This document shows, piece after piece, positions 4,643 through 26,007 of a stretch of DNA of 34,033 nucleotides. Within the stretch, counting starts at the first letter, position 1, and every line of letters begins with the position of its first letter. Under the pieces are notes generated by a model, which did not search any database, was not told where the DNA came from, and was given only the letters and a program-made list of their open reading frames with translations. The stretch covers positions 1 to 34,033 of the forward strand of contig CAZFAZ010000036.1 of the NCBI GenBank assembly GCA_964517155.1, read 5' to 3'. The translations under genes and the position numbers were made by a program. Origin of the DNA: an uncultured Thermoplasmatales archaeon. GTDB lineage: Archaea; Thermoplasmatota; E2; DHVEG-1.

Positions 4643-5602
4643 TTATTTTAGTTTTCCGCCTTCTTGAACAAAATATGCTAGTAGTGTTTCTAGTTGTATA
4701 TGAGCATTGCTTCCTTGTATGAGTCTGAACTCTGTTTCACCTGTTTTTTCAATGAGATGTACTTTGCTTTCCTCAGGAATTGTTAAATCAAAAATATTTT
4801 GATGTATTTGTTTTACTATGTCTTCTCCTGACAAACCATATTTTATTAGTAAATCATATAGCTGGTTTCTTGCAGCCATAAATTTACCGCCTAGTGCTGT
4901 GTTTATCAAATTTTTGATATCCTCTGGTTTTGCAGTTGCAGTTGTTTCATATATTAATTCTGCTGTAATTTTATCTGAAGTCGATGCCCCTACTTGAAGT
5001 ATATTTATTGCTTTTCTCATATCTCCCCGGCTTATAAATATAAGTGTATCAAGGCCATCTTGTGTGATTTGTAGTTTTTCATTTTGTGCAATTTTTCTCA
5101 TATATTTTTTAATATCATCAGGCTTTATCGGACTGAAACGAAATACAGTACATCTGGATTGTATCGGATCTATTACTTTTGATGAATAATTTACAGATAG
5201 TATAAAACGACAGATATGAGTATATTTTTCAATGGTTCTTCTAAGTGCAGATTGTGCATCGTTTGTAAGTGAATCTGCTTCATCTAGAAAGATTATTTTA
5301 AACTGTGCTTTTCCCATGGGTGCTGTTCTTGCAAAATCTTTGATTTTACCACGTATGATATTAATTCCTCTTTCATCACTTGCATTAAGTTCATTGAAGT
5401 TTTGTTTCCAGGTATCACCAAAAAGTTCTTTTGCAAGTGCAATAGCTGATGTGGTTTTACCAGTGCCGGCAGGTCCTGCAAACATTAGATGCGGAACATT
5501 TTTTGTTTTAACATATGCTTTTAGCCTTTCTACTATTTCATCTTGACCTACTACATCATCTAGTTTCTTTGGCCGGTATTTTTCTATCCAGATTTCCTCC
5601 AT
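4643..5602 (-). CDS. rfcS: Replication factor C small subunit
   Basis: WIEKYRP, Walker A GPAGTGKT, ELNASDERG, Walker B FLDEAD, SRC motif and GDMRKAIN. Confidence 0.97.
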   Translation of the reverse strand: MEEIWIEKYRPKKLDDVVGQDEIVERLKAYVKTKNVPHLMFAGPAGTGKTTSAIALAKELFGDTWKQNFNELNASDERGINIIRGKIKDFARTAPMGKAQFKIIFLDEADSLTNDAQSALRRTIEKYTHICRFILSVNYSSKVIDPIQSRCTVFRFSPIKPDDIKKYMRKIAQNEKLQITQDGLDTLIFISRGDMRKAINILQVGASTSDKITAELIYETTATAKPEDIKNLINTALGGKFMAARNQLYDLLIKYGLSGEDIVKQIHQNIFDLTIPEESKVHLIEKTGETEFRLIQGSNAHIQLETLLAYFVQEGGKLK

Positions 5603-5635
5603 TAAAAGCCCCTTTGTGGTAATGTATTGTATTAG

Positions 5636-6178
5636 TTAATCTTTTTGCTCTATTACTTTTTTTATTATATTTGGTAGTTTTTTAATATTTTTTGTAAAAC
5701 TATGATCGTCATGATAAAATTTTATTGTTGCTTGTTGTGATTTTGCAAATTCTACAGACCAGTTATTTGGCACAACATCATCTAGTGTTCCTATAAGTAT
5801 TGTTATATCTGCTTTTATTTTTTTATCAAATAGCCGTGGATCTTTCATGTCTTTTAATATTGATTGTGGCATGTCTTTTATTTTTGTTATATCGTAATCT
5901 TTTGGCATTATCGCTGGATTCAAAAGAATTAACTTATTAATATTATCAGATTCTATAGCAGTTTCTACTGCTAAAAATCCACCTAGGGATGACCCTATTA
6001 ATACTACATCTGAATCTTTTTTGATTTCTTTTTTTATATTTTCAAGACATTCTGATATTATTAGTTCCTCTGGTTTGCAGTTTCTATATTTTATAGGCTT
6101 TGCATTTAGTGTTTTTTTAAAAAGTGTTCCTTTTGTACTATTTGGATCTGACAGGTAACCATGTATATAGTATAGCAT
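5636..6178 (-). CDS. Alpha/beta hydrolase, YqiA/UPF0227-like esterase
   Basis: YIHGYLS, nucleophile elbow GSSLGG, DDVVP and DHSF catalytic triad elements. Confidence 0.85.
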   Translation of the reverse strand: MLYYIHGYLSDPNSTKGTLFKKTLNAKPIKYRNCKPEELIISECLENIKKEIKKDSDVVLIGSSLGGFLAVETAIESDNINKLILLNPAIMPKDYDITKIKDMPQSILKDMKDPRLFDKKIKADITILIGTLDDVVPNNWSVEFAKSQQATIKFYHDDHSFTKNIKKLPNIIKKVIEQKD

Positions 6179-9343: not shown

Positions 9344-11068
9344 ATTAAAAAGAACATTACAATAGTACTAATCATTTTTCTATTAAGTGTTTTGTGTTTA
9401 CAAAACATAAGTATTGCTTTTAATACAACTTACGAAAAATTAAAAGAAAACGAAAAAATATTTTCTATTTCATCTGAACTACCTAGCTATTTTAGTTGGA
9501 CAGATATAGATGGAGTTGATTTTACAACACCTATCCGCGCACAACAACCCTATTCAAGCTGTGAAGCATTTGCATATGTTGCAGCACTAGAAGTAATGGC
9601 TCATAAAGAGATAGGTTATCCTTTTGGCTGCGATCTTTCTGAAGCACACTTATATTTCTGCAACGGGGGCAATACTGGTTGGGGAAGTTACCCTGAAAAT
9701 GGAACAAATTTTTTAGTAGAATATGGTGTTCCTGATGAAGCATGCTGGCCGTATCCTAATTATTTAGATGAAGCAGAGATGTTTCCCAAGAATACAACAT
9801 GTGCTAACTGGCAGGAGCGAGTTGTTAAAATTAAAAACTGGAGTTATTTACCCCCTGGAGATATCAACGCTATAAAAGAAGCACTTGTAAATAACGGGCC
9901 GGTTCCTACGCATCTTCATTCCTATCAAGATTTTGGATATTACAAAAGTGGTGTATATCAACATAAATGGGGTGATACCTCAGGTCTTCATTGTGTTTGC
10001 ATAATGGGATACCAAGATGATGAAAGTATTGCTTCAGGCGGTTACTGGATTGTTAAAAACAGTTGGGGAACTCATTTAAGATCAGGTCGCCCTTGGGGTG
10101 AAGACGGCTGGGTAAGAATTGCATATGGCGAAGCAAGTATTGAAGAAATGGCAATATTATTTGAAGGAGTATACGGTCAATTTCCTATACTATATGTCGA
10201 TGATGATAATGTTGCAGGTCCTTGGAACGGCTCTGAAGAGTATCCTTATAAAACAATATCTGAAGCGATAAATAAAGCCTATGACGGTTGGACTGTGTTT
10301 GTTAAGAACGGAACATACACTGAAAATCTAGTTATTAATAAAACAATAAATTTAGATGGTGAAAACCCGGAAACCACAATTATTGATGGAAATAACAATG
10401 GAATTGTTATATATGTTCAAAAACCAAATGTGAGAATCTCAGGATTTACTATTCAAAACTCTGGCTCAAAAAGACTTGATTCAGGTATTAGAACACTTAC
10501 ACTTCAATCAGATTTACTTGTTAAAAACTGTATAATAAAGGATTGTGATGTTGGAGTTTATTTGAATTGTGTAGATTTTGATATATATACTCAGACTAAA
10601 AACACTATTATAAATAACACTATAAAAAACAACAATATAGGAATTTTTACAACCTGGGTTCAAAACAACATAATCACAGATAACAAAATCTACAATAACA
10701 AACTACATGGAATTGAAATGGAAGCAAGTAAATATTCTATTATAAAAGATAATGAGATTTATAATAACAAAGAAATTGGAATTTATCTTCACGGCCATTG
10801 TGATGAAACAGAAATTTTTTCCAATCTGATAAAAAATAACTCTAACGGCGTAATTATAAAAGAAACAAATAACTGTATAATACAAAAAAACAATTTTGTT
10901 GATAACACAGAGCAAGCAAGTTTTATCAGATCACGTGCAAATAAATGGAACAGTAATTTTTGGTCTGATGCAAAAGGGATACTACCTTATCTTATTAAAG
11001 GCACAATTAATTTTAAAAATCTTCCTTGGATAAACTTTGATTGGAGACCTTTAGTTGTTCTAATCTAA
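9344..11068 (+). CDS. Secreted papain-family (C1A) cysteine peptidase fused to a right-handed beta-helix (NosD/pectin-lyase-like) domain
   Basis: QQPYSSCEAF (catalytic Cys), DLSEAHL, HCVCIMGY (His), WIVKNSWG (Asn), then YVDDDN...TISEAI and Asn/Ile-rich beta-helix repeats. The start is extended from TTG 9392 to ATT 9344 to complete the signal peptide (inferred). Confidence 0.85.
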   Translation: MKKNITIVLIIFLLSVLCLQNISIAFNTTYEKLKENEKIFSISSELPSYFSWTDIDGVDFTTPIRAQQPYSSCEAFAYVAALEVMAHKEIGYPFGCDLSEAHLYFCNGGNTGWGSYPENGTNFLVEYGVPDEACWPYPNYLDEAEMFPKNTTCANWQERVVKIKNWSYLPPGDINAIKEALVNNGPVPTHLHSYQDFGYYKSGVYQHKWGDTSGLHCVCIMGYQDDESIASGGYWIVKNSWGTHLRSGRPWGEDGWVRIAYGEASIEEMAILFEGVYGQFPILYVDDDNVAGPWNGSEEYPYKTISEAINKAYDGWTVFVKNGTYTENLVINKTINLDGENPETTIIDGNNNGIVIYVQKPNVRISGFTIQNSGSKRLDSGIRTLTLQSDLLVKNCIIKDCDVGVYLNCVDFDIYTQTKNTIINNTIKNNNIGIFTTWVQNNIITDNKIYNNKLHGIEMEASKYSIIKDNEIYNNKEIGIYLHGHCDETEIFSNLIKNNSNGVIIKETNNCIIQKNNFVDNTEQASFIRSRANKWNSNFWSDAKGILPYLIKGTINFKNLPWINFDWRPLVVLI

Positions 11069-12100: not shown

Positions 12101-12187
12101 AATAATAATTTTTTCAATAAATTGTAGTATTCGCTGAGTCTTCTGTATGATATTTTAGTTCTATTGATATTGTGCATATTTTTTATT

Positions 12188-12210
12188 TTATGCATTAATT
12201 TTGTGCATAA
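12188..12210. promoter_or_regulatory. Palindromic operator-like site TTATGCA-N9-TGCATAA with extra TGCAT half-sites
   Basis: Perfect 7-bp arms about 30 bp upstream of the ATPase ATG; further TRTGCAT copies at 12171 and 12221. Confidence 0.45.
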
Positions 12211-12241
12211 AGTTAATAAATATGCATGTCTATTAAGTATT

Positions 12242-13561
12242 ATGGATGAAAGACACAGACGTCTGCTTGTAAAGCAGAATCCTTGGTGGAAAAACGAAAA
12301 AACATCGCTACCTGAGTTTGAACGTGACCTTCTAAAAGAACTGCTCAAGTACCTAAAATATAAACAAATACTAGCAATAGTCGGATTAAGACGAGTAGGA
12401 AAAACAATCTTGATGAAACAAATAATACAAAAATTACATGCGCCAAAAAACAATCTCTGTTACATATCATTTGATGATATTGACTTCCAGAAATACACAA
12501 TCGCAGAGGATCTTATCAATTATTTCTTAGAATTCTCAGATAAAACAAAAAGTAGATACCTTTTCTTAGATGAAATACAGAAACTTCCCCACTGGGCAGA
12601 TCTTATAAAAACATGCTATGACACTGAAGAAAATCTAAAAATTATTCTATCTGGTTCTGCTAGCCTTGAAGTAAACCTTGACAAAGAAACACTGGCGGGA
12701 CGAATACTCACGTTTCATTTGCCGACTCTGACCTTTAAAGAATACACAAGATACTTTAAAATTGAGAATAATGTAACATCAGATGAATTTATTCGAATAT
12801 ATGACCTTAATTTTGCCAGCAAGAAAGAACAATATAATGATTTATTCAAAGAATATATTATCAAAGGTGCATTTCCTGAGTTACTAACTGTAAGTCTTGT
12901 AGAAAAAGATTACATCAAAAAATACATCAAAGAATCAGTTATAGAAAAATCTATAGTCGATATTTCACGTCTCACAAAAGAAGATGAACATATTATATAT
13001 GATCTTTTTAGATTACTGGCAAATGGCAATGCACGATTATTTGAGATATTAAATATTTCAAATATACTTAAGGTTAACAGAAATCGCATATCACAATATA
13101 TAAACCTACTTGAAAAATCATTCTTATTAAAAATTTCATATAACTATACTGCAAGTGTCGCCAAACAGATAAGGGCAAGTAAAAAACAGTATACTATTCA
13201 CAGCTCATTGGTAATTGCATTACTTGACTATCCTTTTGAAGTAATTAACACAGAAATCATAGGACATCTTGTTGAAAGTGTTATAGCAAATGTATTAGAG
13301 AAACCATCCTTTTGGAGAACACCACAAAAAGATGAAGTTGATTTTATCGTAGATCAAAAGTTACCAATAGAAGTAAAATACAAGTCACAAATAACTAACG
13401 ATGACTTAAGATCACTGCTAAAATTTTGCAAAAAATTTCACACAAACAAAGCGATTATTGTCACCAGAGATTTACTCGAAAAACGCAATATTGACAACAT
13501 AGAAGTAATCTTTATCCCGGCCTGGTATTTTTTACTATGTTGGGGTTCAATAAAGCTATAA
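12242..13561 (+). CDS. AAA+ ATPase (AAA_14/COG1373) with DUF4143 and C-terminal PD-(D/E)xK-like domain
   Basis: QNPWW, Walker A GLRRVGKT, Walker B FLDEIQ, SGSAS, LAGR, GAFPE and C-terminal EVDF...PIEVKY; ATG at 12242 preferred as start. Confidence 0.9.
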   Translation: MDERHRRLLVKQNPWWKNEKTSLPEFERDLLKELLKYLKYKQILAIVGLRRVGKTILMKQIIQKLHAPKNNLCYISFDDIDFQKYTIAEDLINYFLEFSDKTKSRYLFLDEIQKLPHWADLIKTCYDTEENLKIILSGSASLEVNLDKETLAGRILTFHLPTLTFKEYTRYFKIENNVTSDEFIRIYDLNFASKKEQYNDLFKEYIIKGAFPELLTVSLVEKDYIKKYIKESVIEKSIVDISRLTKEDEHIIYDLFRLLANGNARLFEILNISNILKVNRNRISQYINLLEKSFLLKISYNYTASVAKQIRASKKQYTIHSSLVIALLDYPFEVINTEIIGHLVESVIANVLEKPSFWRTPQKDEVDFIVDQKLPIEVKYKSQITNDDLRSLLKFCKKFHTNKAIIVTRDLLEKRNIDNIEVIFIPAWYFLLCWGSIKL

Positions 13562-13746: not shown

Positions 13747-14004
13747 TCATCGTAATTTCACACCTGAGGATTTAATTTTTTCTATCATCTCAGGATTCCA
13801 TGTCCAGATTATTTTGTTGTCGTCGTCTATCATGATTTTACCGGATTCTTTTAGATAATCTATTATCATGCAGAATGTTTGATACATTACTTTTTTTGGC
13901 AAAGCTTTCCATAGTTCTGTTTTTTTTGGATAATTCATTTTTTGGATTGTTTCTTCTACCATTAAGATTGTATCTAGTTGCGGGTAGTGAATCTTTTTTG
14001 TCAT
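13747..14004 (-). CDS. Small winged-helix-like protein (85 aa)
   Basis: MTKKIHYPQLDTILMVEETI...KTELWKALPKKVMYQTF..IIDYLKESGKI reads as helix-turn-helix plus wing; ATG at 14004. Confidence 0.7.
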   Translation of the reverse strand: MTKKIHYPQLDTILMVEETIQKMNYPKKTELWKALPKKVMYQTFCMIIDYLKESGKIMIDDDNKIIWTWNPEMIEKIKSSGVKLR

Positions 14005-14328
14005 TTCAACAAACCTATTATATATATTTATATAACTATGATATTTAAGGTTTTTGTTTATATTTTGCATATTTATCAAAAACATATTGAAAAAACTCCA
14101 TTATATACGTAAAGAGGGGAAATTGAAAGTATTAATAAAAATTCAAAAATATATATTGTAATATTATAATGTAGATATTTTGGCGTTCATTATGCTTCTT
14201 GCTTACGTCTAAATAATATTTTTAGGTCATATTCTTTCTACATTTTACAAAGTATTTTTATGTTATAGTATTGGTTTTTCTGGTTATACAGCAAAAGTTT
14301 TGCTATATAAGCTTGTCTTTTTATCATT

Positions 14329-14407
14329 TTGACATTCTAACTAGAAACGTTTAAATACCAAAACTTGACAGAATATAACATGTCAATATATGACAATGGA
14401 TGGTGAG
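14329..14407 (+). promoter_or_regulatory. Archaeal promoter (BRE-like GAAA, TATA TTTAAATA 14350-14357) with TTGACA-N10-TGTCAA operator and SD GGTGAG
   Basis: TTGACA at 14329 and 14365, TGTCAA at 14381, TGACA at 14391; GGTGAG at 14402-14407 precedes ATG 14415. Confidence 0.55.
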
Positions 14408-14414
14408 AGAAAAT

Positions 14415-14498
14415 ATGGAAAAAATAATGGTCATAGGAGCTATTATCTCTTTGGGCACTATTTCATATGGAATATGTCCTCAATTATTAAGTTTATAA
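14415..14498 (+). CDS. 27-aa hydrophobic small peptide MEKIMVIGAIISLGTISYGICPQLLSL (not in the ORF track)
   Basis: TATA box, SD GGTGAG 7 nt upstream of ATG, and a downstream hairpin. Confidence 0.5.
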   Translation: MEKIMVIGAIISLGTISYGICPQLLSL

Positions 14499-14500
14499 CC

Positions 14501-14533
14501 TAGCATCTAAAGTTGTAAAAATAAATGATGCTA
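14501..14533. terminator. Inverted repeat TAGCATC...GATGCTA between the convergent sORF and Lrp gene
   Basis: 7-bp perfect arms at 14501-14507 and 14527-14533. Confidence 0.35.
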
Positions 14534-14563
14534 AATTAAGTATATTTGTTTAATTATTCGTTG

Positions 14564-15532
14564 CTATATCTCTGGTAACCAACGTTCTTTATGAATTTTT
14601 TCGAATATCCAAAAGTTTTGTTTTTTAATTACGTTAGGAAACTTAGCATTTACCTCATCCATAATCTGACCTAACTTATCGACATTTTCAGTTATAATCT
14701 CAAATTCCAAATCACACCAACCAACCGCCACATTTAATGTATCACAATAAGCTTTTTCTTTTAAATAATCCCAAATTGCTCTTCTTGAACCATAGTTCCT
14801 TAAGTAAATCTCAAGTTTGTAATGTTGAAGTCCTAACTTAGATATATCAACATTTACTCGAAATGCATTAATAACACCATTTTTAATTAGATTTTTTATA
14901 CGATAAGCAACTGTCTGTGAAGAACACTTTAATTTTTCTGCCAGATCAATAAGAGGAATTCTTGCATTTATTGCAATTTCGTTTATTAAATCATAATCAA
15001 TCAAGTCAATTTCAATTGTTTTAGTCATACAAGCAGTTCGGTACATTAATCGATTAGATTCCTTACATTCTTCCAAAAGATATGATTTTTTATAATTAAA
15101 AGCCTCAACAAATATTGAAATAACATATTTTGCGAAATAATCTTGGTATTTGTCAAGAGTTTTACTCCAGAACTGATAAAATTCATAGACATCCTTAACC
15201 CACACAACAACATCAAAATCTATTTCTGCTTTTAGTGAAATTACAGCCCAAACATTTTTATATTCAACAAAATGTTGAATTATTTTATTTTTAATATCTG
15301 AGCTAACATATTGGAAATTAATATAAATTCTATAAACATGATATCCTAACTTAAAGGTATTGATTGCTGTCCAAAAATTCTTAATAATTCCTTCATCCTG
15401 CATTCTTTTAATTCTATAAGCTACTACATCTTTTTTCAACCCTACTTTTTTACCTATTTGAGTATTTGATTGTCTACAATTTAAATCAAGCTCATATAGT
15501 ATTTTTCTATCTTTAAGATCAATTTTAGTCAT
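14564..15532 (-). CDS. Tandem (double HTH-RAM) Lrp/AsnC family transcriptional regulator
   Basis: Two repeats: DLKDRKILYELDLNCRQSNTQIGKKVGL..VAYRIKRM and DLIDYDLINEIAINARIPLIDLAEKL..TVAYRIKNL, each followed by a RAM-like domain. Confidence 0.92.
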   Translation of the reverse strand: MTKIDLKDRKILYELDLNCRQSNTQIGKKVGLKKDVVAYRIKRMQDEGIIKNFWTAINTFKLGYHVYRIYINFQYVSSDIKNKIIQHFVEYKNVWAVISLKAEIDFDVVVWVKDVYEFYQFWSKTLDKYQDYFAKYVISIFVEAFNYKKSYLLEECKESNRLMYRTACMTKTIEIDLIDYDLINEIAINARIPLIDLAEKLKCSSQTVAYRIKNLIKNGVINAFRVNVDISKLGLQHYKLEIYLRNYGSRRAIWDYLKEKAYCDTLNVAVGWCDLEFEIITENVDKLGQIMDEVNAKFPNVIKKQNFWIFEKIHKERWLPEI

Positions 15533-15638
15533 ATTATCTATAGCTTGTAATTTTCTTTGGGTTATTTTATTGTTTGTATTTTAAGAATAAAAACTTTAGT
15601 TAAATATATAAGTAAACAAAGTATTTTTAAATAATAGG

Positions 15639-17534
15639 ATGCACACGGAAAACAAAAAAGTTTTACTAATCTCTATGCCATTTGCGGGGGTTGATATACC
15701 ATCTATACAACTTGCAATATTAGAATCATATCTAAAAGAAAGAAACATAAAAATAAAAACATTACATCTCTACCTTAAAGCTGCAGAAATATATGGTCTT
15801 ACAAACTATTTTAACTTGATTTATCCTCCAAATGACTCATATACCGCTCAGATTATTTATTCAAAATATCTTTTCCTAGAACACTTTAAAAAGAACAAAG
15901 AAAAATTTAAAGAATATTTTCATAAAAGTCATGAAAAACTTAGTTTTCAAGAATACTTAGAAAAAACAGATGTTTTTTACAACTGGTTTTTTGAAAATAT
16001 AAATTGGCAAGAATTTGACATAATAGGTTTTAGCTTAAATTATGGACAATTTTTACCATCACTTTCATTTGCAAAAAAAATAAAAGAGACAAACCCTGAA
16101 AAAATAATAATTCTTGGAGGTAGCAGAACCACCGGTTTAATTGGCGAAAGAGCTCTTCAAACCTTTGACTTTATTGACTATATCGTATCTGGTGATGGTG
16201 AAGAGCCGCTTTATAATATTTCAACTCAATCTGAAAACTTAAGACAAATACCAGGTCTTATATATCGCAAAAATGGCAAAATAATATCAAATGGTATCAA
16301 CAACACCACAAATATTAATGATTTACCGATACCATCGTTTGATTCATATTATGTTGAATTAAAAGATGTTTCTCCAGATATACAGCAATTCTTTTCTTAT
16401 GCTGGAAAACTACCAATTGAAATATCAAGAGGCTGTTGGTGGAATAAATGTAGTTTTTGTAATTTAAACCTTCAACATAAAAGATATCGTGAAAAAAATG
16501 TTGAAAAAATAGTTAAAGAAATAGATTTTTTATCAAATAAATATAAAATGTTAAATTTTCAAATAATTGGCAATACACTACCTGTAAAAGATCATAAAAT
16601 ATTATGTAAAAAAATTATACAACTTAAAAAAGATCTCACGTTTTTTGCAGAAGCAAGAGCAGATCACCTAAAAAGTGATGATTATAATCTACTCAAAAAA
16701 GCAGGTTTTAAAAATATTCAAACCGGTATAGAATCCTTTAGTTCGAATTATCTTAAAAAAATGAATAAAGGCACAAGAATAATAGATAATATTGCAGCAT
16801 TAAAATTTTGTAAAGAAAACAACATAAAAAACAGCTATAATTTAATAGTGGGCTATCCAAATGAAGAAAAAATTGATTTTGATGAAACAAAAATTAATAT
16901 TGAATTGTTCAAAAAATATCTTGAGCCACCGAATCTCTGCCAATTTAGGTTAGTTTACGAAAGTCCGATTCATTGCAACCCTATTTTATATAACATAGAT
17001 AAAATAGAAAATACAACAGTTGACAAAATTATGTTTCCTCAAGAAATTATAGATAAAAAATTTAATTTTGTGTTTGATTTTAAAAGAAAAAATGAAATAG
17101 CCGAAAACCCTTGGAAAAAACTAGTATCAAATTGGAAAAATACATATGAAGAGCAAAAAACGTTGAGCGTAAAACGAAATACCGAGCTTGAAGAACTAGT
17201 CTTTTATTTCAAAGACGGTGGCAATTTTATAAAAATATATGATAAAAGACATAGTGATAACGCAATGATTTACATGCTCAACAGTGATGAAAGAAAAGTG
17301 TTTTTAGCATGTAGTAATGTTATATCAAAAACAGAGTTGCAAAACAAATTTGAAAATATTAGTTTGTCTGAACTAAATGATATGCTAAATAGTTTTGTAG
17401 AAGCAGGAATTCTTTATAAAGAAAACGAATGGTACCTATCACTGCCAATCAGCTATCAAAAATATTATAATAAAGAGCCAGATAAAAAGACTGAAGATAT
17501 CGAGGAAATCAGGGAATATATAAATAATCTGTAA
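15639..17534 (+). CDS. Cobalamin-binding (class B) radical SAM protein resembling RiPP-maturation C-methyltransferases (TIGR03975-like)
   Basis: N-terminal VLLISMPF...PSIQLAIL, B12-domain DIIGFS...IILGGS...VSGDGE, rSAM EISRGCWWNKCSFC (CxxxCxxC), QTGIESFS..LKKMNKG, YNLIVGYPNE and a C-terminal wHTH/PqqD-like extension. Confidence 0.82.
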   Translation: MHTENKKVLLISMPFAGVDIPSIQLAILESYLKERNIKIKTLHLYLKAAEIYGLTNYFNLIYPPNDSYTAQIIYSKYLFLEHFKKNKEKFKEYFHKSHEKLSFQEYLEKTDVFYNWFFENINWQEFDIIGFSLNYGQFLPSLSFAKKIKETNPEKIIILGGSRTTGLIGERALQTFDFIDYIVSGDGEEPLYNISTQSENLRQIPGLIYRKNGKIISNGINNTTNINDLPIPSFDSYYVELKDVSPDIQQFFSYAGKLPIEISRGCWWNKCSFCNLNLQHKRYREKNVEKIVKEIDFLSNKYKMLNFQIIGNTLPVKDHKILCKKIIQLKKDLTFFAEARADHLKSDDYNLLKKAGFKNIQTGIESFSSNYLKKMNKGTRIIDNIAALKFCKENNIKNSYNLIVGYPNEEKIDFDETKINIELFKKYLEPPNLCQFRLVYESPIHCNPILYNIDKIENTTVDKIMFPQEIIDKKFNFVFDFKRKNEIAENPWKKLVSNWKNTYEEQKTLSVKRNTELEELVFYFKDGGNFIKIYDKRHSDNAMIYMLNSDERKVFLACSNVISKTELQNKFENISLSELNDMLNSFVEAGILYKENEWYLSLPISYQKYYNKEPDKKTEDIEEIREYINNL

Positions 17535-17663
17535 AAAAACTGATTTTTATTAATTATTCCTACAATCGTAATCAAAAACTAGGTATTTTAGAATTTTGTA
17601 GGATTTTTTAGATATGGGGCTTTATGTCTTTATAACAAATTACTATTCTTGAGGCAAAAAAAG

Positions 17664-17852
17664 ATGAAGGGAACAAATGGCCTAGAAAATGAAAGAATGC
17701 TGATGGATGGTTGCATATCCAATTGCATAACTATATGCGAAAAAGGTATTTATTCAAACATTTTCTGTCACAAAAAAGCTGAAAAAACATCAAAATTAAG
17801 GGAGGAAGAAAAAATAGCTCCAGAGATAAAATGTATAGGAGGTATGAAATAA
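17664..17852 (+). CDS. 62-aa Cys-containing small peptide, candidate precursor or leader
   Basis: GAGG 9 nt before ATG 17664; MKGTNGLENERMLMDGCISNCITICEKGIYSNIFCHKK...KCIGGMK; the stop is 1 nt before the next ATG and the ORF end holds the next SD (GGAGGT). Confidence 0.55.
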   Translation: MKGTNGLENERMLMDGCISNCITICEKGIYSNIFCHKKAEKTSKLREEEKIAPEIKCIGGMK

Positions 17853-17853
17853 T

Positions 17854-18459
17854 ATGTATTTTTTCTTAATTGCCTATTCTATACTAGGAGCTGGCATTAA
17901 ATACATTGATGATGCCTTTGATGAAAAAACATTCAATAAAATAATAGCATTAACTCTTGCACCGTTTCTAGGCATTCTTGGAGCCTATGCAATGATAATT
18001 GATCCTATATCAGCTACAATACTTCTAGCAGTTCTAGCCGGAGTATTAATAAAAGGAAAGGTTGACAATTATGCATTCATAATAGGATTTATAACAGTTT
18101 TAACAATTGCAATACTTGCCGGAATGCAATTTTTAATAATACCGTTAATACTTCTTTCAGCAGCAGCGATACTTGATGAAATCGGCAATGATTTTATAGA
18201 TAATAAAAAAAACAGCTTGAATCCAAATAATCCAGTGCATATCTTCGGAAAATATTTTCTTGGACACAGATGGATAATGAAAACAACAATAATATTCTTA
18301 GTAATACTAAACATGGTGCCAATATATTTCTTACTAGCCATGATACTCTTTGATTATGCCTATCTAGCAGTCAATGCTTACAGTCAAACAAAAGAAAAAA
18401 TGATAGATGCAACAACAATGAATAAAATCATTGGAACAGTTGGATACATATTTAAATAA
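17854..18459 (+). CDS. Multi-pass membrane protein with Asp-rich motifs (IDDAFDE, GKVDN, LDEIGND)
   Basis: About 6 hydrophobic helices; strong SD GGAGGT; acidic motifs loosely recall UbiA/MraY-type Mg-diphosphate sites. Confidence 0.7.
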   Translation: MYFFLIAYSILGAGIKYIDDAFDEKTFNKIIALTLAPFLGILGAYAMIIDPISATILLAVLAGVLIKGKVDNYAFIIGFITVLTIAILAGMQFLIIPLILLSAAAILDEIGNDFIDNKKNSLNPNNPVHIFGKYFLGHRWIMKTTIIFLVILNMVPIYFLLAMILFDYAYLAVNAYSQTKEKMIDATTMNKIIGTVGYIFK

Positions 18460-18487
18460 AACATATTACCATATCTTTTTTTAACTT

Positions 18488-19738
18488 ATGACAATAGAAT
18501 GTGATGTGTTGGTAGTCGGTGGTGGACCAGCAGGAAGTAGTGCTGCTAGAGCAGCTGCAAAAGAAGGAGCAAAGACGATTCTTGTTGAGGAACATGAAGC
18601 TATAGGTGTTCCAGTCCAATGCGCAGAAGGAATAGGAAAATACCTAATTCCTTTTTTACCCTTTAAAATTCCAAAAGAACAACTCTTATGGGAAATCAAA
18701 GGAATGACTTTTTGGGCAGATGATAATTTAATCGAGCGTAACGGCGGGATATGGTCTGGTTATACTATTAACAGGACAAAATGGGATCAGTGGCTTGCAA
18801 CACTTGCAAAAAACAAAGGAGCAGAAATTAAACTAAATTCAAAATTAACAGATTTAGAATACAACGATGAACTTGTTGTTAAAAAAGCAATTGTTAAATC
18901 AAATAATAAAAAAATAGAAATTGAACCAAAAATAGTAATAGCCGCAGATGGGGTAAACTCAACAGTTGTTGAGTTATTAAGAATAAGGAAAGAATCTAAA
19001 CAAGATCTTGGAGAAGTCAAAAGTTACGAAATTAAAAATATAAATTTAACATATCCAAATCATGACCAACTATTTCTAGGAGAATTTGCACCAAATGCAT
19101 ATGCTTATATTTTCCCAATGACAAAAAACAGAGCAAATATTGGCATTGGAAAAGTATATGATGAAAAAAACAACATAGAAACACTTTATAAAAATTTTAT
19201 AGAAACACCAATTGTTAATAAACAAATTAAAAATGCAAAAATAGTCTCTGAAAAAAGCGGATATGCTCCTGTAAAATATACAACGAATGAATGGATTTAT
19301 GGAAACACATTATTAGTCGGCGATGTTGCAAATCAAAACTTCAAACCATTTATAGAAGGAAACCTACCAGCCATCATATGTGGAGATATTGCAGGTAAAA
19401 TATCAGCAAAAAACAAGCAAAACATTGAAAATTTATACAAATACAAAAAAAATGTATACAAAAAAATTGGACCAATGTTTAAAAGCTCCGATATTGTAAC
19501 AGATATGCTTCTAGAGATACAAGAGCTTAAAAACAAGGATTTACTCTATATGATACTGTTTTCCAATATTTATTCTATAAAAACGCTTAAAAAATTAATG
19601 AAAACAGAAGAAAAAGATGAAATAATGCAAAAAATAACATCCTGGAAAGAAGGAAAAATAAATCAATCAAAAACATTGTTAACAGAAGCCTCTTACTTGA
19701 TTCTATTATCAATATGGCATCAAATAAGGAGGCTGTAA
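18488..19738 (+). CDS. Geranylgeranyl-reductase-family FAD oxidoreductase (divergent) 1
   Basis: DVLVVGGGPAG, CAEGI, AADG, YAYIFP and LLVGD; TTTAAATA at 18451 suggests its own leaderless promoter. Confidence 0.85.
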   Translation: MTIECDVLVVGGGPAGSSAARAAAKEGAKTILVEEHEAIGVPVQCAEGIGKYLIPFLPFKIPKEQLLWEIKGMTFWADDNLIERNGGIWSGYTINRTKWDQWLATLAKNKGAEIKLNSKLTDLEYNDELVVKKAIVKSNNKKIEIEPKIVIAADGVNSTVVELLRIRKESKQDLGEVKSYEIKNINLTYPNHDQLFLGEFAPNAYAYIFPMTKNRANIGIGKVYDEKNNIETLYKNFIETPIVNKQIKNAKIVSEKSGYAPVKYTTNEWIYGNTLLVGDVANQNFKPFIEGNLPAIICGDIAGKISAKNKQNIENLYKYKKNVYKKIGPMFKSSDIVTDMLLEIQELKNKDLLYMILFSNIYSIKTLKKLMKTEEKDEIMQKITSWKEGKINQSKTLLTEASYLILLSIWHQIRRL

Positions 19739-19741
19739 AAT

Positions 19742-20911
19742 ATCCAAAAAACATATGATGTTATTATCATAGGAGGAGGAATCTCAGGATGTTTAACAGC
19801 ATTAGGGCTGCAAAAAGCTGGATACGAAACTCTTTTATTGGAAAAACAAAGAACAATAGGCAACTATCCTCAAAAAATAGATATAACTGAAGATATCGAC
19901 CTGCAAAACATTCTAAAAGAACATAATATAAAGCCAGAAATTACTTCAAATACATCTTTTTGGCATGCCGGAGAACACACTTTTGAGTTCAAATCAAAAA
20001 TCAAGGAATTGTTTTTTTTACGAGGCGATAATGAAAAATCATTAGAAAAACAATTATTTAAACAAGCATTAAATGCTGGACTTGAAACAGTTTTTTCTGC
20101 AAAAACAAAAATAAAAAACAAAAAAATATCATTAAACAATAAAGAGATAAATTCAAAGATTATAGTTGGTACAGATGGCGTAGATTCGATAATAACAAAA
20201 TATTGTGCCCCAAATGAAAAATTCAAAATCATTGAAGGATATGGACAGTCGTATAATGATCTAGATCTACCTGTTGGACAAACACATGTTTTTTTTGAAC
20301 AAAATCAAATACCAGGAGGGTATGTTTATATAAGTAGAACCTCAACTCTTGGAACTATAGTTCTAGGCTGTAAAAACAAACCTAATGAAAAATATCTTGA
20401 TAAAATAAAAAAATCTGATCCTCAGATAAATGAAATCATTGGAAAAAGAAAAGGAACAAACATATGGGGAAAAGGAATTATATCAAATATAAACAAACGA
20501 GTATATGATAACATTATACTAGTAGGTGATGCAGCTAGAGTTGCAGATCCAACGTTTTTATATGGTGTTAGGCAGGCGTTGATATCTGGAGACATAGCCA
20601 TAAAAACGATAATAAATCATCTGGAAAATGGAGAAAAACTAGAACAATACGACATACTTTTGAAAAATAAACTATTGCAGGATTATTATCTTTCAAAAGT
20701 TGCTAGAAACACACTTGAAAAAACCAGTCAAAAAGATATAGAATTTATAATAAGAAACCTTGATGAAATAAATAATAAAATAGGCCTTGATGGAATAAGT
20801 CAAAGACCAATAGATACATTAAAAATAACAGCCCTGCTTTTTGCTAAAAATCCATATAATATAACAAAAATAAGTTTCAAAGTAATAAAATCATTATTTG
20901 AAGCATTATAA
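19742..20911 (+). CDS. Geranylgeranyl-reductase-family FAD oxidoreductase (divergent) 2
   Basis: The in-frame extension upstream of TTG 19838 encodes the Rossmann motif (IQKTYDVIIIGGGISG); also GTDG, PGGYVYI and LVGDAARVADP. Start inferred at ATC 19742 after AGGAGG. Confidence 0.8.
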   Translation: MQKTYDVIIIGGGISGCLTALGLQKAGYETLLLEKQRTIGNYPQKIDITEDIDLQNILKEHNIKPEITSNTSFWHAGEHTFEFKSKIKELFFLRGDNEKSLEKQLFKQALNAGLETVFSAKTKIKNKKISLNNKEINSKIIVGTDGVDSIITKYCAPNEKFKIIEGYGQSYNDLDLPVGQTHVFFEQNQIPGGYVYISRTSTLGTIVLGCKNKPNEKYLDKIKKSDPQINEIIGKRKGTNIWGKGIISNINKRVYDNIILVGDAARVADPTFLYGVRQALISGDIAIKTIINHLENGEKLEQYDILLKNKLLQDYYLSKVARNTLEKTSQKDIEFIIRNLDEINNKIGLDGISQRPIDTLKITALLFAKNPYNITKISFKVIKSLFEAL

Positions 20912-20917
20912 CAAAAA

Positions 20918-22189
20918 CTAATTTTTAACTGTTAAACTATTCAAACTTTCATAAAGATAATGTGGAACACCATCACCATAAGAAACACTTTCACCGCCTA
21001 CAAATAATACTAAAAATGGGTTGTTAACCTTATTTTTAATCATATCATATATTTTGTATATTTGACCACCGAGTGTTTCAATATATGTTTCGCACATAAT
21101 CATAAGATTCAAATTAAGATCATTGCTAAAAGAACTAAATAATTCTTCTGTACTTTTTAAAATCTGTTTGCCAGTTAACTGGAAAAGCTTTAACTTTGCT
21201 TGATCTGCCTGATTTGCAAAATAAATCTTTTCACCAAGAATTCCTGAAACAATACAGGCATGAATAAAATCATTACTGTAACATCCAAATGGATAATAAA
21301 AAGATTGAGAATAAAATTTATCAAGCATCCTTACGTTATCTTTATCTATACCAACTATGTTAAAAAGTTCTTCAGTTGCTTTTTTACCATTTATTTTTTG
21401 TACAAGTCTCATATCTGGGTTTAATTCAAAATCAAACGTATCCTCTTGTTTTTCAACAAGGCCAAATGATGTATTTAGATCACATTTCATATTACAATTT
21501 AATTTCATAAGACAAAGAGCATTTTCAAGAACTTCTTTATCAAAAAATTGATAATTGTGTATAAACTTTCTATCATCCATACAAGTCATACCAATTAGTT
21601 TTGAACTTTTAAAAAGATCAACGATGTTGTCAAGAATCTCATCTGCTCTATCTGCACCCATATTCAGACGCGAAATCAAAGGCAACAATTTGATTGATGT
21701 TTCACCAGCACTTTTTGATTTAATCACACTTTGTCTACCAATTCGTGGAAAATTAGGGATTTCAGCACCTGATACAATCTCAAAAATAAACTGATTGTTA
21801 TTATCATCTAGTTTTTTAAAATTTGATAAACACTCATCAACAGCTTTTTTGGGATTTCTCTTAGTATTATGCCCCAATCCAATTTCAACATCCATACCTT
21901 CTGAATAAACTGCAAGACTAGTAGCACCTCTAGTGAAACAACCAAATTGATTCATAAAACCTGCAACAGTACCACCAATCAATGGTGTTCCTTCAGGTAA
22001 AACATCCCAAACTCCTTTTAAAAATTCTTCAAAACCACCATTATCTTTATAATGAATAGTTGAGAATAAAATAAAGAAACTTGGCGGTGCACTGAGTTGT
22101 TGAATCGTATCTCTAGCTACTTCTCTACCGGCTTCTCGTGCATCCCATTTACGAGTCATTCCAACTGCTGCATCTATATTTTTTTCCAT
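20918..22189 (-). CDS. Stand-alone FIST-domain sensory protein
   Basis: AVG...DAREAGREVA, FILFST, PLIGGTVAGF, INGKKA, YPFG and C-terminal GGES fit FIST_N/FIST_C; no output domain seen. Confidence 0.8.
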   Translation of the reverse strand: MEKNIDAAVGMTRKWDAREAGREVARDTIQQLSAPPSFFILFSTIHYKDNGGFEEFLKGVWDVLPEGTPLIGGTVAGFMNQFGCFTRGATSLAVYSEGMDVEIGLGHNTKRNPKKAVDECLSNFKKLDDNNNQFIFEIVSGAEIPNFPRIGRQSVIKSKSAGETSIKLLPLISRLNMGADRADEILDNIVDLFKSSKLIGMTCMDDRKFIHNYQFFDKEVLENALCLMKLNCNMKCDLNTSFGLVEKQEDTFDFELNPDMRLVQKINGKKATEELFNIVGIDKDNVRMLDKFYSQSFYYPFGCYSNDFIHACIVSGILGEKIYFANQADQAKLKLFQLTGKQILKSTEELFSSFSNDLNLNLMIMCETYIETLGGQIYKIYDMIKNKVNNPFLVLFVGGESVSYGDGVPHYLYESLNSLTVKN

Positions 22190-22207
22190 TTTCTCAATTC
22201 TTACAAT

Positions 22208-22609
22208 TTATGCAACTGCTAATCTTTCTTGTTCTTGTTTGTTTAATATATTTTGAATTTCCCTGCGGGAGTTCTCCATTTCAACTTCAATGAGGCCCTT
22301 GTTTGAAAGAGCGGGTATTATTGCCACTAGGGCGTTGTCTGTCTCATGGAAAACGTAGAATAGTACTTCGTAGTCTTGAAGTCTGAACTCCATTTCAGAC
22401 AGTCCTGCTTGTGAATAATCACGTATAACATTAAACACATCATCCATCGCACGATGCAATATATCCCATATCTGATTAATTTCTGAGCTAAAGCCATCTG
22501 TTCCATCAGAAGGCATCACACTAATCATGTTTTGCCTTGCAACCATACATGCAAGAATATCATCTAGTTTCAGAAGGTCATCTAATACAATTGAAATAGG
22601 GTCACCCAT
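22208..22609 (-). CDS. Roadblock/LC7 (MglB)-like small protein
   Basis: 133 aa with helix, beta-hairpin, helix, three strands and helix pattern (VLDDLLKLDDILACMVA...ALVAII...NKGLIEVEM); SD GAGGTG; 18 nt upstream of the FIST gene. Confidence 0.55.
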   Translation of the reverse strand: MGDPISIVLDDLLKLDDILACMVARQNMISVMPSDGTDGFSSEINQIWDILHRAMDDVFNVIRDYSQAGLSEMEFRLQDYEVLFYVFHETDNALVAIIPALSNKGLIEVEMENSRREIQNILNKQEQERLAVA

Positions 22610-23904: not shown

Positions 23905-25608
23905 ATGAGAAAAATAGCAATAATAGACGGATACATCGACGAGCCGACGTGCCTAGGGGTTCCACCATATATTAGTCCATATCCTAGATACATTACAGGT
24001 GCGATTTTAAAACACGACAAAAAAAACCTAGTTTCATATTATACAATCGATCAAATAAGACAAAAAAGCGATCTTAGTTTTTTATCAAAGAACAATTTAA
24101 TAATAGTAATTGCGGGAACATCTGTTCCTGGAAGATATCTTTCAGGATACCCGGCAAGCCCAAATGAACTAAAAAAATTTTTAGAAAATACACCTGTAAA
24201 AAAAATACTTACAGGACCTGCGGCAAAACACGGTTTTGGCATGCAAGGCGGACAAAAAACATATGATTCAGCTTTACTAAAAGACATATTTGATTTAATA
24301 ATTACAGGCGACCCAGAAATAGTAATAAAAAACTATCTAGATGCAAATCTAAAGTCAAAAGATTTAAACATAAATGAAAAAAGAAAAAATGCACACAAAG
24401 TAAAAGAATACGCAAACCTTGGAAGCAAAATTGTAACACAGCATCCATTTTATCCAGATTATATTATCGCAGAAATAGAAACATATAGAGGATGCCCGAG
24501 AACCATTGTCGGCGGCTGTAGCTTCTGCAGTGAACCTGGTAAGGGCCTACCCGATTTCAGACCAATAAATGATATCGCCCAAGAAATACAAAAACTATAC
24601 CAGCATGGAATACGACATATAAGGCTTGGAAATCAACCTTGTATTTTTTCATACCAAAGCCGTGATGCAGGAAAAAAAGAGTTCCCCCGACCAAATCCTG
24701 AGGCATTAGAAGAACTATTTTCAAAGATAAGAAAAGTTGCACCAGATCTTTTAACACTACATATCGACAATGCAAACCCTGGAGTAATAGCACGCTATCC
24801 AAAAGAGTCAGAAGAAATTGCAAAAACAATAATAAAATATCACACGCCCGGCGATGTTGCCGCTATGGGTGTAGAAAGCGCAGATCCAACAGTCATAAAA
24901 AATAATAACTTAAAAGCAACACCTGAAGAATCACTAAAAGCAATAAAAATAATAAACAAAGTAGGTGCAAAACGCGGTAATAATGGAATGCCAGAACTAC
25001 TACCCGGGCTTAACTTTGTATTTGGCCTAAAAGGAGAAACAAAAAACACATTTGAGCTAAACTATGAATTTTTAAAACAAATCCTTAATGAAAACCTGCT
25101 ACTTAGAAGAATAAATCTTAGACAAATAATACCAATACCAAACACAAAAATGTATCAAACAGGTAACAAACTTGTAAACAAACACAAAAACCTATTTAAA
25201 AAATTTAAAAACCAAGTAAAAGAAACAATAGAAAGACCAATGCTTGAAAAAATACTACCACAAGCAACAATTGTAAAAAACATATATACCGAAAAACACG
25301 ATGGAAAACTAACATTTGGCAGACAACTAGGAAGCTACCCCTTACTAGTAGGAATACCTGGAGTATACACATTAGGCCAATTCATGGACGTAAAAATTGT
25401 AGACTATGGATACAGAAGTATTACTGCAATACCTTATCCAATAAACCTAAATGATGCACAACGACAAACTATAGAAGCAATACCGGGAATTGGAAAAAAA
25501 CGAGCGATTAGAATACTTGCAAATAGGCCTTTTAAAAGTAATTCTGAATTAGAAAAGATACTAGACGAAGAAGAAATTGTAAAAAAAATAATGCCGTTTA
25601 TAGAATAA
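23905..25608 (+). CDS. Archaeal radical SAM protein with C-terminal helix-hairpin-helix (COG1031-like)
   Basis: IIDGYIDEPTCLGVPPYISPYPRY, ETYRGCPRTIVGGCSFC, LHIDNANP, GRQLGSYP and HhH AIPGIGKKRA. Confidence 0.85.
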   Translation: MRKIAIIDGYIDEPTCLGVPPYISPYPRYITGAILKHDKKNLVSYYTIDQIRQKSDLSFLSKNNLIIVIAGTSVPGRYLSGYPASPNELKKFLENTPVKKILTGPAAKHGFGMQGGQKTYDSALLKDIFDLIITGDPEIVIKNYLDANLKSKDLNINEKRKNAHKVKEYANLGSKIVTQHPFYPDYIIAEIETYRGCPRTIVGGCSFCSEPGKGLPDFRPINDIAQEIQKLYQHGIRHIRLGNQPCIFSYQSRDAGKKEFPRPNPEALEELFSKIRKVAPDLLTLHIDNANPGVIARYPKESEEIAKTIIKYHTPGDVAAMGVESADPTVIKNNNLKATPEESLKAIKIINKVGAKRGNNGMPELLPGLNFVFGLKGETKNTFELNYEFLKQILNENLLLRRINLRQIIPIPNTKMYQTGNKLVNKHKNLFKKFKNQVKETIERPMLEKILPQATIVKNIYTEKHDGKLTFGRQLGSYPLLVGIPGVYTLGQFMDVKIVDYGYRSITAIPYPINLNDAQRQTIEAIPGIGKKRAIRILANRPFKSNSELEKILDEEEIVKKIMPFIE

Positions 25609-25611
25609 AAT

Positions 25612-25720
25612 TTACTCTAAATTCTTAGACATTTCAACAATAAAAGGTTTAGTTTTAGGAAGAGTTTCTATCAATTGATTCAAGTATATCCTCTAAAAAT
25701 ACTTTATATGATCTTTTCAA
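25612..25720 (-). pseudogene. HEPN (DUF86/HepT) toxin remnant with internal deletion
   Basis: The TTG start overlaps the MNT stop and reads MKRSYKVFLEDILESIDR (DUF86-like N-terminus). In the +1 frame it reads IETLPKTKPFIVEMSKNLE* (DUF86-like C-terminus). Total 109 nt. Confidence 0.7.
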
Positions 25721-26007
25721 GAGTAAACAACCTCTTTAAAAATAGACTCTCGTAATTGCGGTTTTAATGCTTTTATTGTTACTAAATCAACTTTTAAATC
25801 TAATATCCGTTCAAGATACTCCTTAAGATCAACAAATTCCCAACCTACAACATCTGAAAATTTAACAAGAATATCAATATCGCTATCTTTTGACTGCTCA
25901 TTTCTTGCATATGAGCCAAATATACCAATTTCTTCAACCTTGAAATTTTTCTTAAGAAAAGATTTATGTTTTTTTAATATTTTTTCAACTTCTTTTCTTG
26001 TTTTCAT
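25717..26007 (-). CDS. Minimal nucleotidyltransferase (MNT/MntA) antitoxin
   Basis: GIFGSYARNEQSKDSDIDILV and KVDLV motifs; 96 aa. Confidence 0.92.
   Translation of the reverse strand: MKTRKEVEKILKKHKSFLKKNFKVEEIGIFGSYARNEQSKDSDIDILVKFSDVVGWEFVDLKEYLERILDLKVDLVTIKALKPQLRESIFKEVVYS

Follow-up and report, generated by a model that had tools for sequence, protein, structure and literature searches.

Candidate peptide-modification island with a B12 radical SAM enzyme, a tandem Lrp regulator and an exchangeable module in one family of Thermoplasmatota archaea

What is made by an archaeal gene island in which a B12-type radical S-adenosylmethionine (SAM) enzyme, here rSAM, stands among a tandem Lrp regulator, two very small genes and a group of isoprenoid-type enzymes? 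The question is raised by a contig of an uncultured Thermoplasmatales archaeon (GCA_964517155.1, CAZFAZ010000036.1, positions 1 to 34,033; this whole stretch of 34,033 nt is referred to as the window), which is contig C36 of a metagenome-assembled genome (MAG) of 1.59 Mb in 91 contigs, 90.8% complete and of ~30% G+C. Its relatives SM1-50, SG8-52-3 and M9B1D we take to be members of MBG-D (Marine Benthic Group D). The initial annotation of the window proposed a cassette making and sensing a modified peptide or lipid-like signal; the genes that it listed all exist, at or near where it had placed them, and our survey of neighborhoods agrees with it that they occur together, as a conserved island in dozens of genera of the window's archaeal family. 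The genes are conserved together far beyond chance, and the neighborhood is thus not a random one. The reading that we prefer, with about as much confidence as doubt, is a two-part, peptide-centered island of one family of MBG-D-type Thermoplasmatota, resembling loci for peptides that are made by ribosomes and modified after translation (RiPPs), its product possibly prenylated and possibly a signal. This reading is drawn from the family of the enzyme, a tight three-way linkage, the precursor-like shape of a small open reading frame (sORF), duplicated peptide-plus-regulator units, and a peptide motif that is fused to an aromatic prenyltransferase.

The comparison drew on 78 loci with 64 distinct rSAM genes, namely the window, 20 loci fetched with their flanks and 57 archaeal loci; the 57, together with 22 bacterial rSAM loci, came from a scan of species-representative genomes. 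Loci were considered fully flanked if at least 1.3 kb was available on each side of rSAM (n = 35), and the downstream module was counted in loci with at least 5 kb downstream (n = 39). Genome-level counts refer to 36 genomes of the window's family, 27 of them rSAM-positive and 9 rSAM-negative. The core of the island in the window consists of the following features.

14269..14414, + strand: conserved promoter and 5' untranslated region (5'UTR) of the sORF, from nucleotide conservation and an nhmmer profile
14350-14357, + strand: TATA-like box in the sORF promoter, from the alignment, at fixed spacing from the ATG
14381-14385 / 14391-14395, + strand: inverted repeat TGTCA / TGACA in the sORF 5'UTR, from the alignment
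14402-14407, + strand: Shine-Dalgarno-like GGTGAG before the sORF, from the alignment
14415..14498, + strand: 27-aa sORF, candidate rSAM precursor peptide; its front is hydrophobic and rich in Ala/Gly/Val/Ile, its end variable and with Cys/Pro
14564..15532, - strand: tandem Lrp/AsnC-type regulator, two units of winged helix-turn-helix plus putative effector domain in one chain (HTH_24 and HTH_AsnC matched twice each)
15596..15612, + strand: rSAM's own promoter, with B recognition element/TATA-like sequence, conserved in an alignment of 21/21 loci irrespective of the upstream gene
15639..17534, + strand: predicted B12-binding radical SAM enzyme (rSAM), TIGR03975 family, 631 aa, divergent from the tandem Lrp

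The assignment of rSAM to TIGR03975, made in the initial annotation by eye, was confirmed by hidden Markov model (HMM) search: the protein is a member of this family, scoring 358 bits against a cut-off of 281.85, with residues 8-604 aligned to profile positions 1-606 of 606. A search of the whole genome again placed it above the cut-off (357.9 bits), which no protein reached in 14 control genomes. The runner-up NCBIfam model was BchE at 102 bits, and models for enzymes of lipid, hopanoid, phosphonate and tRNA metabolism scored 18-72 bits, far under their cut-offs (HpnR, 62 vs. 650; HpnJ, 71.9 vs. 577.6; TIGR04072, 68.2 vs. 360). That the enzyme might instead be of a lipid- or tRNA-modifying type was a case that the initial annotation had itself raised; in HMM scores, which we used in place of an rSAM tree, no NCBIfam lipid, hopanoid or tRNA model was reached, the set holding no model for Gmm and Grs. 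The Radical_SAM domain of Pfam matched at 70.1 bits, and the Pfam B12-binding domain at 20.4 bits (E = 4.8e-4), below its cut-off of 32.1, over a region that the TIGR03975 alignment also spans. Residues R264, G265, C266, W267, W268, C271 and C274, including the Cys triad C266/C271/C274, are invariant in 21/21 orthologs. Orthologs with 48-60% identity were found in 27 of the 36 family genomes and in one genome of a sister family; among 60 relatives there was none beyond these, the other 24 showing weak, paralog-level matches.

These scores bear on the main rival explanation, tailoring of an isoprenoid lipid or quinone, which we regard as possible but rather unlikely. There, rSAM would methylate the isoprenoid chain or prenylated aromatic head group of a molecule built by the prenyltransferase or membrane protein described below and saturated by the GGR paralogs, and the small ORFs would be membrane subunits or regulatory leaders. 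It stays the main rival because B12 radical SAM enzymes do act on archaeal isoprenoid lipids: Gmm, GrsA and GrsB are reported to methylate or cyclize archaeal tetraether lipids (PMC11214058). The 358 bits of rSAM on TIGR03975, as compared to 62-72 on HpnR, HpnJ and TIGR04072, argue against it.

The second member of the core is the sORF, which the initial annotation had noted on the flank of the island and which is indeed present. The stretch past the 3' end of the Lrp gene (~14276-14445) shows 72-88% nucleotide identity to ~40 related loci, and in the alignment the TATA-like box, the inverted repeat and the Shine-Dalgarno-like GGTGA keep a fixed spacing to the sORF ATG. An nhmmer profile of the element (matching the window at 14269-14450) detected it in 34/35 fully flanked rSAM loci and 46/64 overall. 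In the eight loci that lack the downstream module, BLASTN found it in five, to which nhmmer added L029 and L059 while missing L039. From the aligned ATG, an ORF of 23-39 aa (median 25) is open in 32/32 loci examined, a length range reached by 12% only of random ATGs in the same loci. What the encoded peptides have in common is a front rich in Ala, Gly, Val and Ile. The last 8-15 residues are almost wholly divergent, with many Pro, Cys, Met and aromatic residues, and are made up, in at least six loci, of a 4-7-residue unit present twice. Mean column identity was 27% for the peptide (alignment A5) vs. 68% for the 5'UTR. The inverted repeat of the 5'UTR was intact in 93% of cells and showed 12 double-sided changes, a result matched in 0/500 shuffles; an RNA hairpin and a palindromic operator would each be compatible with it. 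An Rfam search of 13900-18000 returned no family for this conserved non-coding element or for the one ahead of the downstream module, and a tRNA scan found no tRNA in the region.

The arrangement of the core varies around constant members. In loci that have the Lrp gene downstream of rSAM, the sORF comes first, followed by rSAM and then Lrp; one locus carries three sORF-plus-Lrp units in tandem ahead of rSAM. Across the 64 distinct loci, the constant core is the triad of sORF, tandem Lrp and rSAM. In the initial annotation, the reading was centered on rSAM and the co-directional 62-aa peptide; a peptide-centered reading is kept here, and both small peptides are conserved across loci, as it had anticipated. 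Since the sORF accompanies rSAM and Lrp also in loci without the downstream cassette, however, we consider it, from its distribution and predicted sequence, the better candidate substrate of rSAM. In our preferred reading, the core part thus comprises a 23-39-aa precursor-like peptide gene, the tandem Lrp and the TIGR03975-type rSAM, and rSAM would act on the peptide's variable C-terminal part, C-methylating it if the enzyme works as its characterized relatives do.

The tandem Lrp, divergent from rSAM in the window as originally described and carrying its two HTH_AsnC/HTH_24 units, lies within 1.2 kb of rSAM in 30/35 fully flanked loci; of the remaining five, it is 2-4 kb off in four and none was seen in one. 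Lrp equivalogs of NCBIfam aligned to ~120 residues in each half at 34-77 bits, all below their cut-offs of 180-250, and no AsnC_trans_reg match was listed. Ortholog-level matches are confined to the window's family. The protein would control the peptide gene, and perhaps the downstream module too. The architecture is itself strongly expanded in the family: the number of matches at E<=1e-40 rises to 17 in one complete genome, and a further one has 10; the window's genome has a single match at this threshold. Parts of the sORF promoter (the box and first palindrome) recur on other contigs, where they may adjoin tandem-Lrp paralogs. A role of the protein as a siroheme-decarboxylase-like enzyme was considered and dropped, since AhbA/AhbB matched the HTH only (27-34 bits) and a family with up to 17 paralogs per genome is more like one of transcription factors.

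The second part of the island is a module that follows rSAM on the same strand and that, in the window, is made up as follows.

17557..17627, + strand: cassette operator/promoter with the inverted repeat TTCCTACAA (17557) ... TTGTAGGA (17596-17603), from a 14-locus alignment
17616-17627, + strand: conserved G-rich/TATA-like box after the cassette palindrome, from the same alignment
17664..17852, + strand: 62-aa Cys-motif peptide, partner of the prenyl-transfer module
17854..18459, + strand: 201-aa polytopic membrane protein, Asp-rich, of an uncharacterized family
18488..19738, + strand: GGR-family flavoprotein, paralog 1 (GGR1); TIGR02032 at 163.5 bits vs. 158.8, GGR_cat at 37.9 bits
19742..20911, + strand: GGR-like flavoprotein, paralog 2 (GGR2), with its FAD-binding N-terminus ahead of the first canonical start codon

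A module was found within 8 kb of rSAM in 31/39 loci, and it is of two main types that exclude each other: 19 loci have the membrane type, 11 an ABBA type, one another type and none both. The membrane-type modules carry one or two copies of the 201-aa protein, with GGR paralogs in 17/19, and the ABBA-type modules one or two copies of a ~420-aa protein, with a ~320-aa reductase in 9/11. The same exclusivity is seen at the level of whole genomes, where the membrane protein occurs in 13/36, the ABBA enzyme in 15/36 and both in 0/36. The arms of the cassette palindrome, TTCCTACAA and TTGTAGGA, stand ~30 nt apart; the palindrome occurs a single time in the whole 1.59-Mb genome and precedes the module in 26/31 module-bearing loci. 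Changes in its arms are uncompensated, which favors a protein-binding site. Both this palindrome and that of the sORF 5'UTR are candidate binding sites of the tandem Lrp.

The ~420-aa protein has no match in Pfam or NCBIfam. Its AlphaFold2 (AF2) model (mean predicted confidence, pLDDT, 78.8) shows five alpha-alpha-beta-beta repeats, the pattern of a prenyltransferase barrel, and Foldseek matched the model to 102 PDB chains at E<=0.001, the best 50 of the 102 being all ABBA aromatic prenyltransferases (TM scores of 0.36-0.59); the matches listed include PriB, DMATS enzymes, NphB, IptA, AmbP3, CymD and the RiPP enzyme LimF. As judged from this predicted structure, the protein is an ABBA-fold aromatic prenyltransferase. 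The accompanying ~320-aa reductase resembles acyl-ACP (acyl carrier protein) reductase (AAR) and the N-terminal part of PigE, in both cases below cut-offs. In one complete genome (L052, the same as L027), two paralogous 320-aa proteins (4824-5795 and 10035-10994) stand where the module would be, behind the same operator; their sequences show an Asp-rich, DDxxD-like box, read by eye, and no match in Pfam, NCBIfam or the PDB sequences.

The 201-aa membrane protein of the window likewise has no Pfam or NCBIfam match; it belongs to an archaeal family of 388 homologs, none of them named, and a language-model atlas placed it in unnamed archaeal clusters only. Thirteen residues are invariant (D19, D23, K69, D71, N72, D108, E109, N112, D113, D116, R139, K143 and D167), and the AF2 model (pLDDT 85.8) has 8 helices. 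Foldseek returned nothing at E<=0.001, the best hit of a wide structural search had a Z of 6.7, which is at the noise level for helical bundles, and no UbiA structure was among the matches listed. By our own reading, the protein has two invariant Asp-rich boxes in an order unlike that of UbiA. Considering its strict mutual exclusivity with the prenyltransferase at the same position, we infer that it is the membrane-bound counterpart of that enzyme and would carry out the same step.

The 62-aa peptide gene adds a further connection to prenyl transfer. In 13 homologs, S19, C25, E26, K27 and Y30 (window numbering) are invariant and the rest is variable. A profile of this Cys motif, run on 63,634 stop-to-stop frames from all stored loci, matched in 19/31 module-bearing loci (11/19 of the membrane type and 8/11 of the ABBA type). 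In 5 distinct loci, the motif lies in frame, with no intervening stop, at the N-terminus of the ABBA prenyltransferase itself, and it occurs within the first 90 residues of 16/120 public prenyltransferase homologs, the motif-bearing proteins having a median length of 450 aa vs. 416 aa for the others. Association and fusion of this kind point to the 62-aa peptide being either a substrate of the prenyltransferase or a small subunit or adapter of it. In some membrane-type loci the peptide is degenerate or a stub, and it is thus dispensable there. The prenyl chemistry that the initial annotation had offered as a possibility is made likely by the replacement of the membrane protein by an ABBA enzyme, by their mutual exclusivity and by the fusion of the Cys motif.

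Two GGR-family flavoproteins had also been proposed, and here one of the two was upheld. GGR1 exceeds the cut-off of TIGR02032; it fails the lipid reductase equivalog (148 bits vs. a cut-off of 780), and of the five GGR-family matches in the genome three outscore it. GGR2 stays below the TIGR02032 cut-off of 158.8, with 48 bits from its annotated start and 88.2 bits with an extended frame (profile 1-296), and matches DAO and FAD_binding_3 of Pfam, with a GxGxxG-type motif. The frame of GGR2 is open from just past the GGR1 stop (window 19739-19840), with no ATG, GTG or TTG before the FAD-binding motif, and AAGGAGG stands 11 nt upstream of an ATC before the gene. GGR2 therefore probably uses a non-canonical start, unless the assembly is in error. 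In the reading that we prefer, the adjacent module, with its own operator, would supply the Cys-motif peptide, a prenyl-transfer step (by the soluble ABBA enzyme or, as in the window, by the non-homologous Asp-rich membrane protein) and product-reducing enzymes (GGR paralogs or the AAR-like reductase).

Core and module could also be two unrelated neighbors, an explanation that we consider unlikely: a regulatory or housekeeping sORF-Lrp-rSAM unit, in which rSAM acts on protein, RNA or a cofactor and the sORF encodes a leader peptide or a micropeptide of the membrane, would stand beside an independent metabolic cassette at a recombination-prone spot. Consistent with this, the module is unlinked in several genomes and present in some rSAM-free ones, the order around the core varies (Lrp divergent or convergent, inserted genes), and the two promoters have different palindromes. 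However, the module lies within 8 kb of rSAM in the 31/39 loci noted above, across many genera and despite these rearrangements, and it is present in 24/27 rSAM-positive as opposed to 4/9 rSAM-negative genomes. The cassettes also differ with the genomes that hold them. Four membrane-type cassettes from rSAM-negative genomes have neither the operator nor the Cys-motif peptide, whereas in rSAM-positive genomes these are mostly present even where core and cassette are unlinked or distant: three such cassettes gave a Cys-motif match (one at E = 0.46 only) and 3/4 of those examined have the operator, the two sets differing slightly, the numbers being small and several of the genomes incomplete. The Lrp-rSAM intergenic regions of ~9 loci contain a 15-nt motif that is also part of the module promoter, a sharing that would speak against unrelated neighbors as well; the motif was set aside as unspecific in AT-rich DNA, the AT-rich window containing 2 matches vs. 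1.6 expected.

Beyond the module, two genes converge on it.

20918..22189, - strand: stand-alone FIST-domain protein (PF08495, 48.2 bits vs. 23.2)
22208..22609, - strand: 133-aa strongly conserved protein, no Pfam match

FIST is found at the far end of the module in 25/31 loci. The 133-aa protein is 60-92% identical across genera and occurs in 29/36 genomes of the family and 6/8 of the sister family, among them genomes without rSAM and without either module, one of which is complete. In a complete island-free genome, FIST and the 133-aa protein are still paired, beside thiolase/DUF35-type and glycine-cleavage genes. Considering this order-wide presence, also without the island, the two are probably a conserved neighboring pair whose membership in the island is doubtful; such an independent pair is what the explanation by unrelated neighbors would lead one to expect. 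It follows that the pair gives no support to the earlier proposal that the locus senses its own product. Nor was the 133-aa protein found to be roadblock-like, as had been suggested: it has no Pfam match at E<=10, Roadblock/LC7 (PF03259) included, and no PDB sequence match below E 0.1, and a language-model search gave, besides unnamed archaeal clusters, one weak lead, Robl_LC7 in 30% of the members of the cluster ranked 6th (score 0.92). In L139 (7020-10234; complete, island-free), FIST overlaps a downstream thiolase-like gene by 8 nt, and DUF35/ChsH2-type genes follow. Archaeal thiolase-like and DUF35/ChsH2-type genes accompany the first steps of the mevalonate pathway, and by this analogy an independent link of FIST to isoprenoid supply is possible.

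Several other genes lie around the island in the window. A 567-aa second radical SAM protein (23905-25608), with a C-terminal helix-hairpin-helix region and a weak likeness to TIGR04013, has counterparts of 64-79% identity close to the FIST pair in several related loci. The remaining flank genes differ from locus to locus; here they are a secreted-type papain-family peptidase with beta-helix repeats (9392-11068), which is near the island in ~8 loci, an AAA_14/DUF4143 ATPase (12164-13561) and, by eye, a small nucleotidyltransferase-like gene (25717-26007).

A number of observations weigh against a peptide-centered island. Every archaeal island locus comes from one family of kin genomes, and the counts given above thus describe one lineage and are not independent. 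The excess of changes at third codon positions of the sORF is modest (0.45 vs. 0.29 and 0.28), and its front is, from the predicted sequence, hydrophobic enough that it may be a membrane micropeptide. A recognizable Cys-motif peptide is lacking in 12/31 modules. There is no protease or exporter in the island, as the initial annotation had remarked of transporters and leader peptidases. The search for a RiPP recognition element (RRE) that it had advised gave none in rSAM or elsewhere in the window: PF05402 (PqqD/RRE), searched genome-wide at E<=10, matched two genes on other contigs. The sequence of rSAM may hold a divergent RRE. The two genes found, C10:25009-25173 and C40:19816-19965 of the window's genome (G000), are stand-alone, RRE-like PqqD-family genes above the Pfam cut-off and may belong to other peptide-modification systems. 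The nearest non-archaeal relatives of rSAM, from Desulfobulbales and kin (28-34% identity), are in non-RiPP contexts in the bacterial loci checked (18/22). In 11 of the 18 loci examined (within L098-L121), the order queA, murI, LolA-like gene, rSAM, S1-domain protein is fixed, and such a housekeeping-like context suggests a non-RiPP role for this Desulfobulbales-type branch of TIGR03975. In addition, one study regards antiSMASH calls that rest on TIGR03975 alone as likely false positives (PMC9426513).

Some of these points count in favor of lipid or quinone tailoring, namely the bacterial relatives outside RiPP contexts and the hydrophobic sORF, as do the isoprenoid-type enzymes of the module (GGR paralogs, ABBA prenyltransferase, AAR/PigE-like reductase) and the unclassified DDxxD-like protein that takes the module's place in one genome. 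Yet the sORF-Lrp-rSAM core stands without a module within 8 kb in 8/39 loci, and membrane-type cassettes are also found in rSAM-free genomes. For ordinary lipid saturation, the three higher-scoring GGR paralogs are available. ABBA enzymes use aromatic acceptors, not glycerol lipids, and the hypervariable, internally repeated ends of the peptides would be unexpected in a structural subunit. We continue to prefer the peptide-centered reading.

Comparison with known systems places the island near several of them and within none. The RiPP C-methyltransferases of TIGR03975 are represented by PoyB/PoyC of polytheonamide, in proteusin-type pathways. The island shares with these pathways an enzyme of the same NCBIfam family, full length and above cut-off, and beside it a short peptide gene with a variable C-terminal part. 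In contrast to them, its precursor would have 23-39 aa and a hydrophobic front in place of a long NHLP/Nif11-type leader; the island is archaeal, no RRE was found and no protease or transporter is present, a tandem Lrp and a prenylation/reduction module go with it, and it is known here from its genes alone. The island also resembles prenylated peptide systems, namely the ComX/ComQ pheromone of Bacillus and the cyanobactin ABBA prenyltransferases PagF and LimF, the last of which is among the structural matches: an ABBA-fold enzyme adjoins small peptide genes, many sORF ends carry Trp, Tyr or Phe, and the Cys-motif peptide has an invariant Tyr and Cys. It differs from them in that its ABBA enzyme falls into no described sequence family, can have the Cys motif built in as an N-terminal extension, and in half of the genomes gives way to a membrane protein unrelated to it. 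We know of no precedent for GGR-type saturation of a peptide-bound prenyl group.

Two further comparisons concern the regulator and the lipid enzymes. In streptococcal SHP/Rgg quorum sensing with the streptide radical SAM operon (StrA/StrB), as in the island, a short hydrophobic peptide gene and its own transcription factor stand beside a radical SAM enzyme, and here the peptide-plus-regulator unit can be tandemly duplicated; the island's regulator, however, is a tandem Lrp and not Rgg, its radical SAM enzyme is of the B12 and not the SPASM type, and it belongs to another domain of life. That the tandem Lrp senses the peptide would be pure inference from this analogy. With Gmm and GrsA/GrsB, which are found with GGR, the island has in common that, in an archaeon, flavoproteins saturating isoprenoids are found close to a B12 radical SAM enzyme, but its rSAM is in a different model family, is confined, among the 60 relatives, to one family plus one sister-family genome, and is accompanied by peptide genes and an aromatic prenyltransferase.

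If the preferred reading is right, the output of the island would be a modified, possibly isoprenylated short peptide whose place of action is the cell's outside or the membrane and whose role is that of a signal or of an antagonist. A far more specific form of it, which we regard as quite improbable, is an archaeal peptide-pheromone circuit. In it, the hydrophobic precursor of 23-39 aa would be C-methylated by rSAM, and the adjacent module would isoprenylate it and saturate the prenyl tail; the resulting lipopeptide would be sensed by the cognate tandem Lrp, and the latter would control both promoters. Were it true, archaea would have their first quorum-sensing-type signal that is ribosomal and lipidated, and the Lrp family its first peptide receptor.

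No description of the island was found in the literature on TIGR03975 and on archaeal RiPPs, radical SAM enzymes, prenyltransferases and MBG-D, which was covered mostly at the level of abstracts; the initial annotation, too, knew of no described archaeal system with this layout. The words radical SAM, B12, prenyl, methyltransferase and Lrp do not appear in the main text of a 2025 survey of archaeal RiPPs, whose supplements could list such clusters under an antiSMASH label (PMC12144867). The island holds three protein or peptide families without description. Judged by predicted functions, it appears to be a variant, confined to one lineage, of peptide maturation by radical SAM enzymes, with prenyl chemistry and a dedicated tandem Lrp coupled to it, and it has the look of a system that makes a modified peptide, signal or antibiotic, of a type undescribed in archaea. 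Very little is known of the ribosomal natural products and cell-to-cell signals of uncultured sediment archaea, and the island offers a concrete set, in which a family of tiny precursor-like peptides and a B12 radical SAM enzyme are joined by two candidates for prenyl transfer that are not homologous and by a dedicated regulator with candidate operators. If the reading is true, it would link archaeal isoprenoid chemistry to peptide modification. As MBG-D count among the sediment archaea of highest abundance, a peptide that is secreted or active in membranes would also matter for their ecology.

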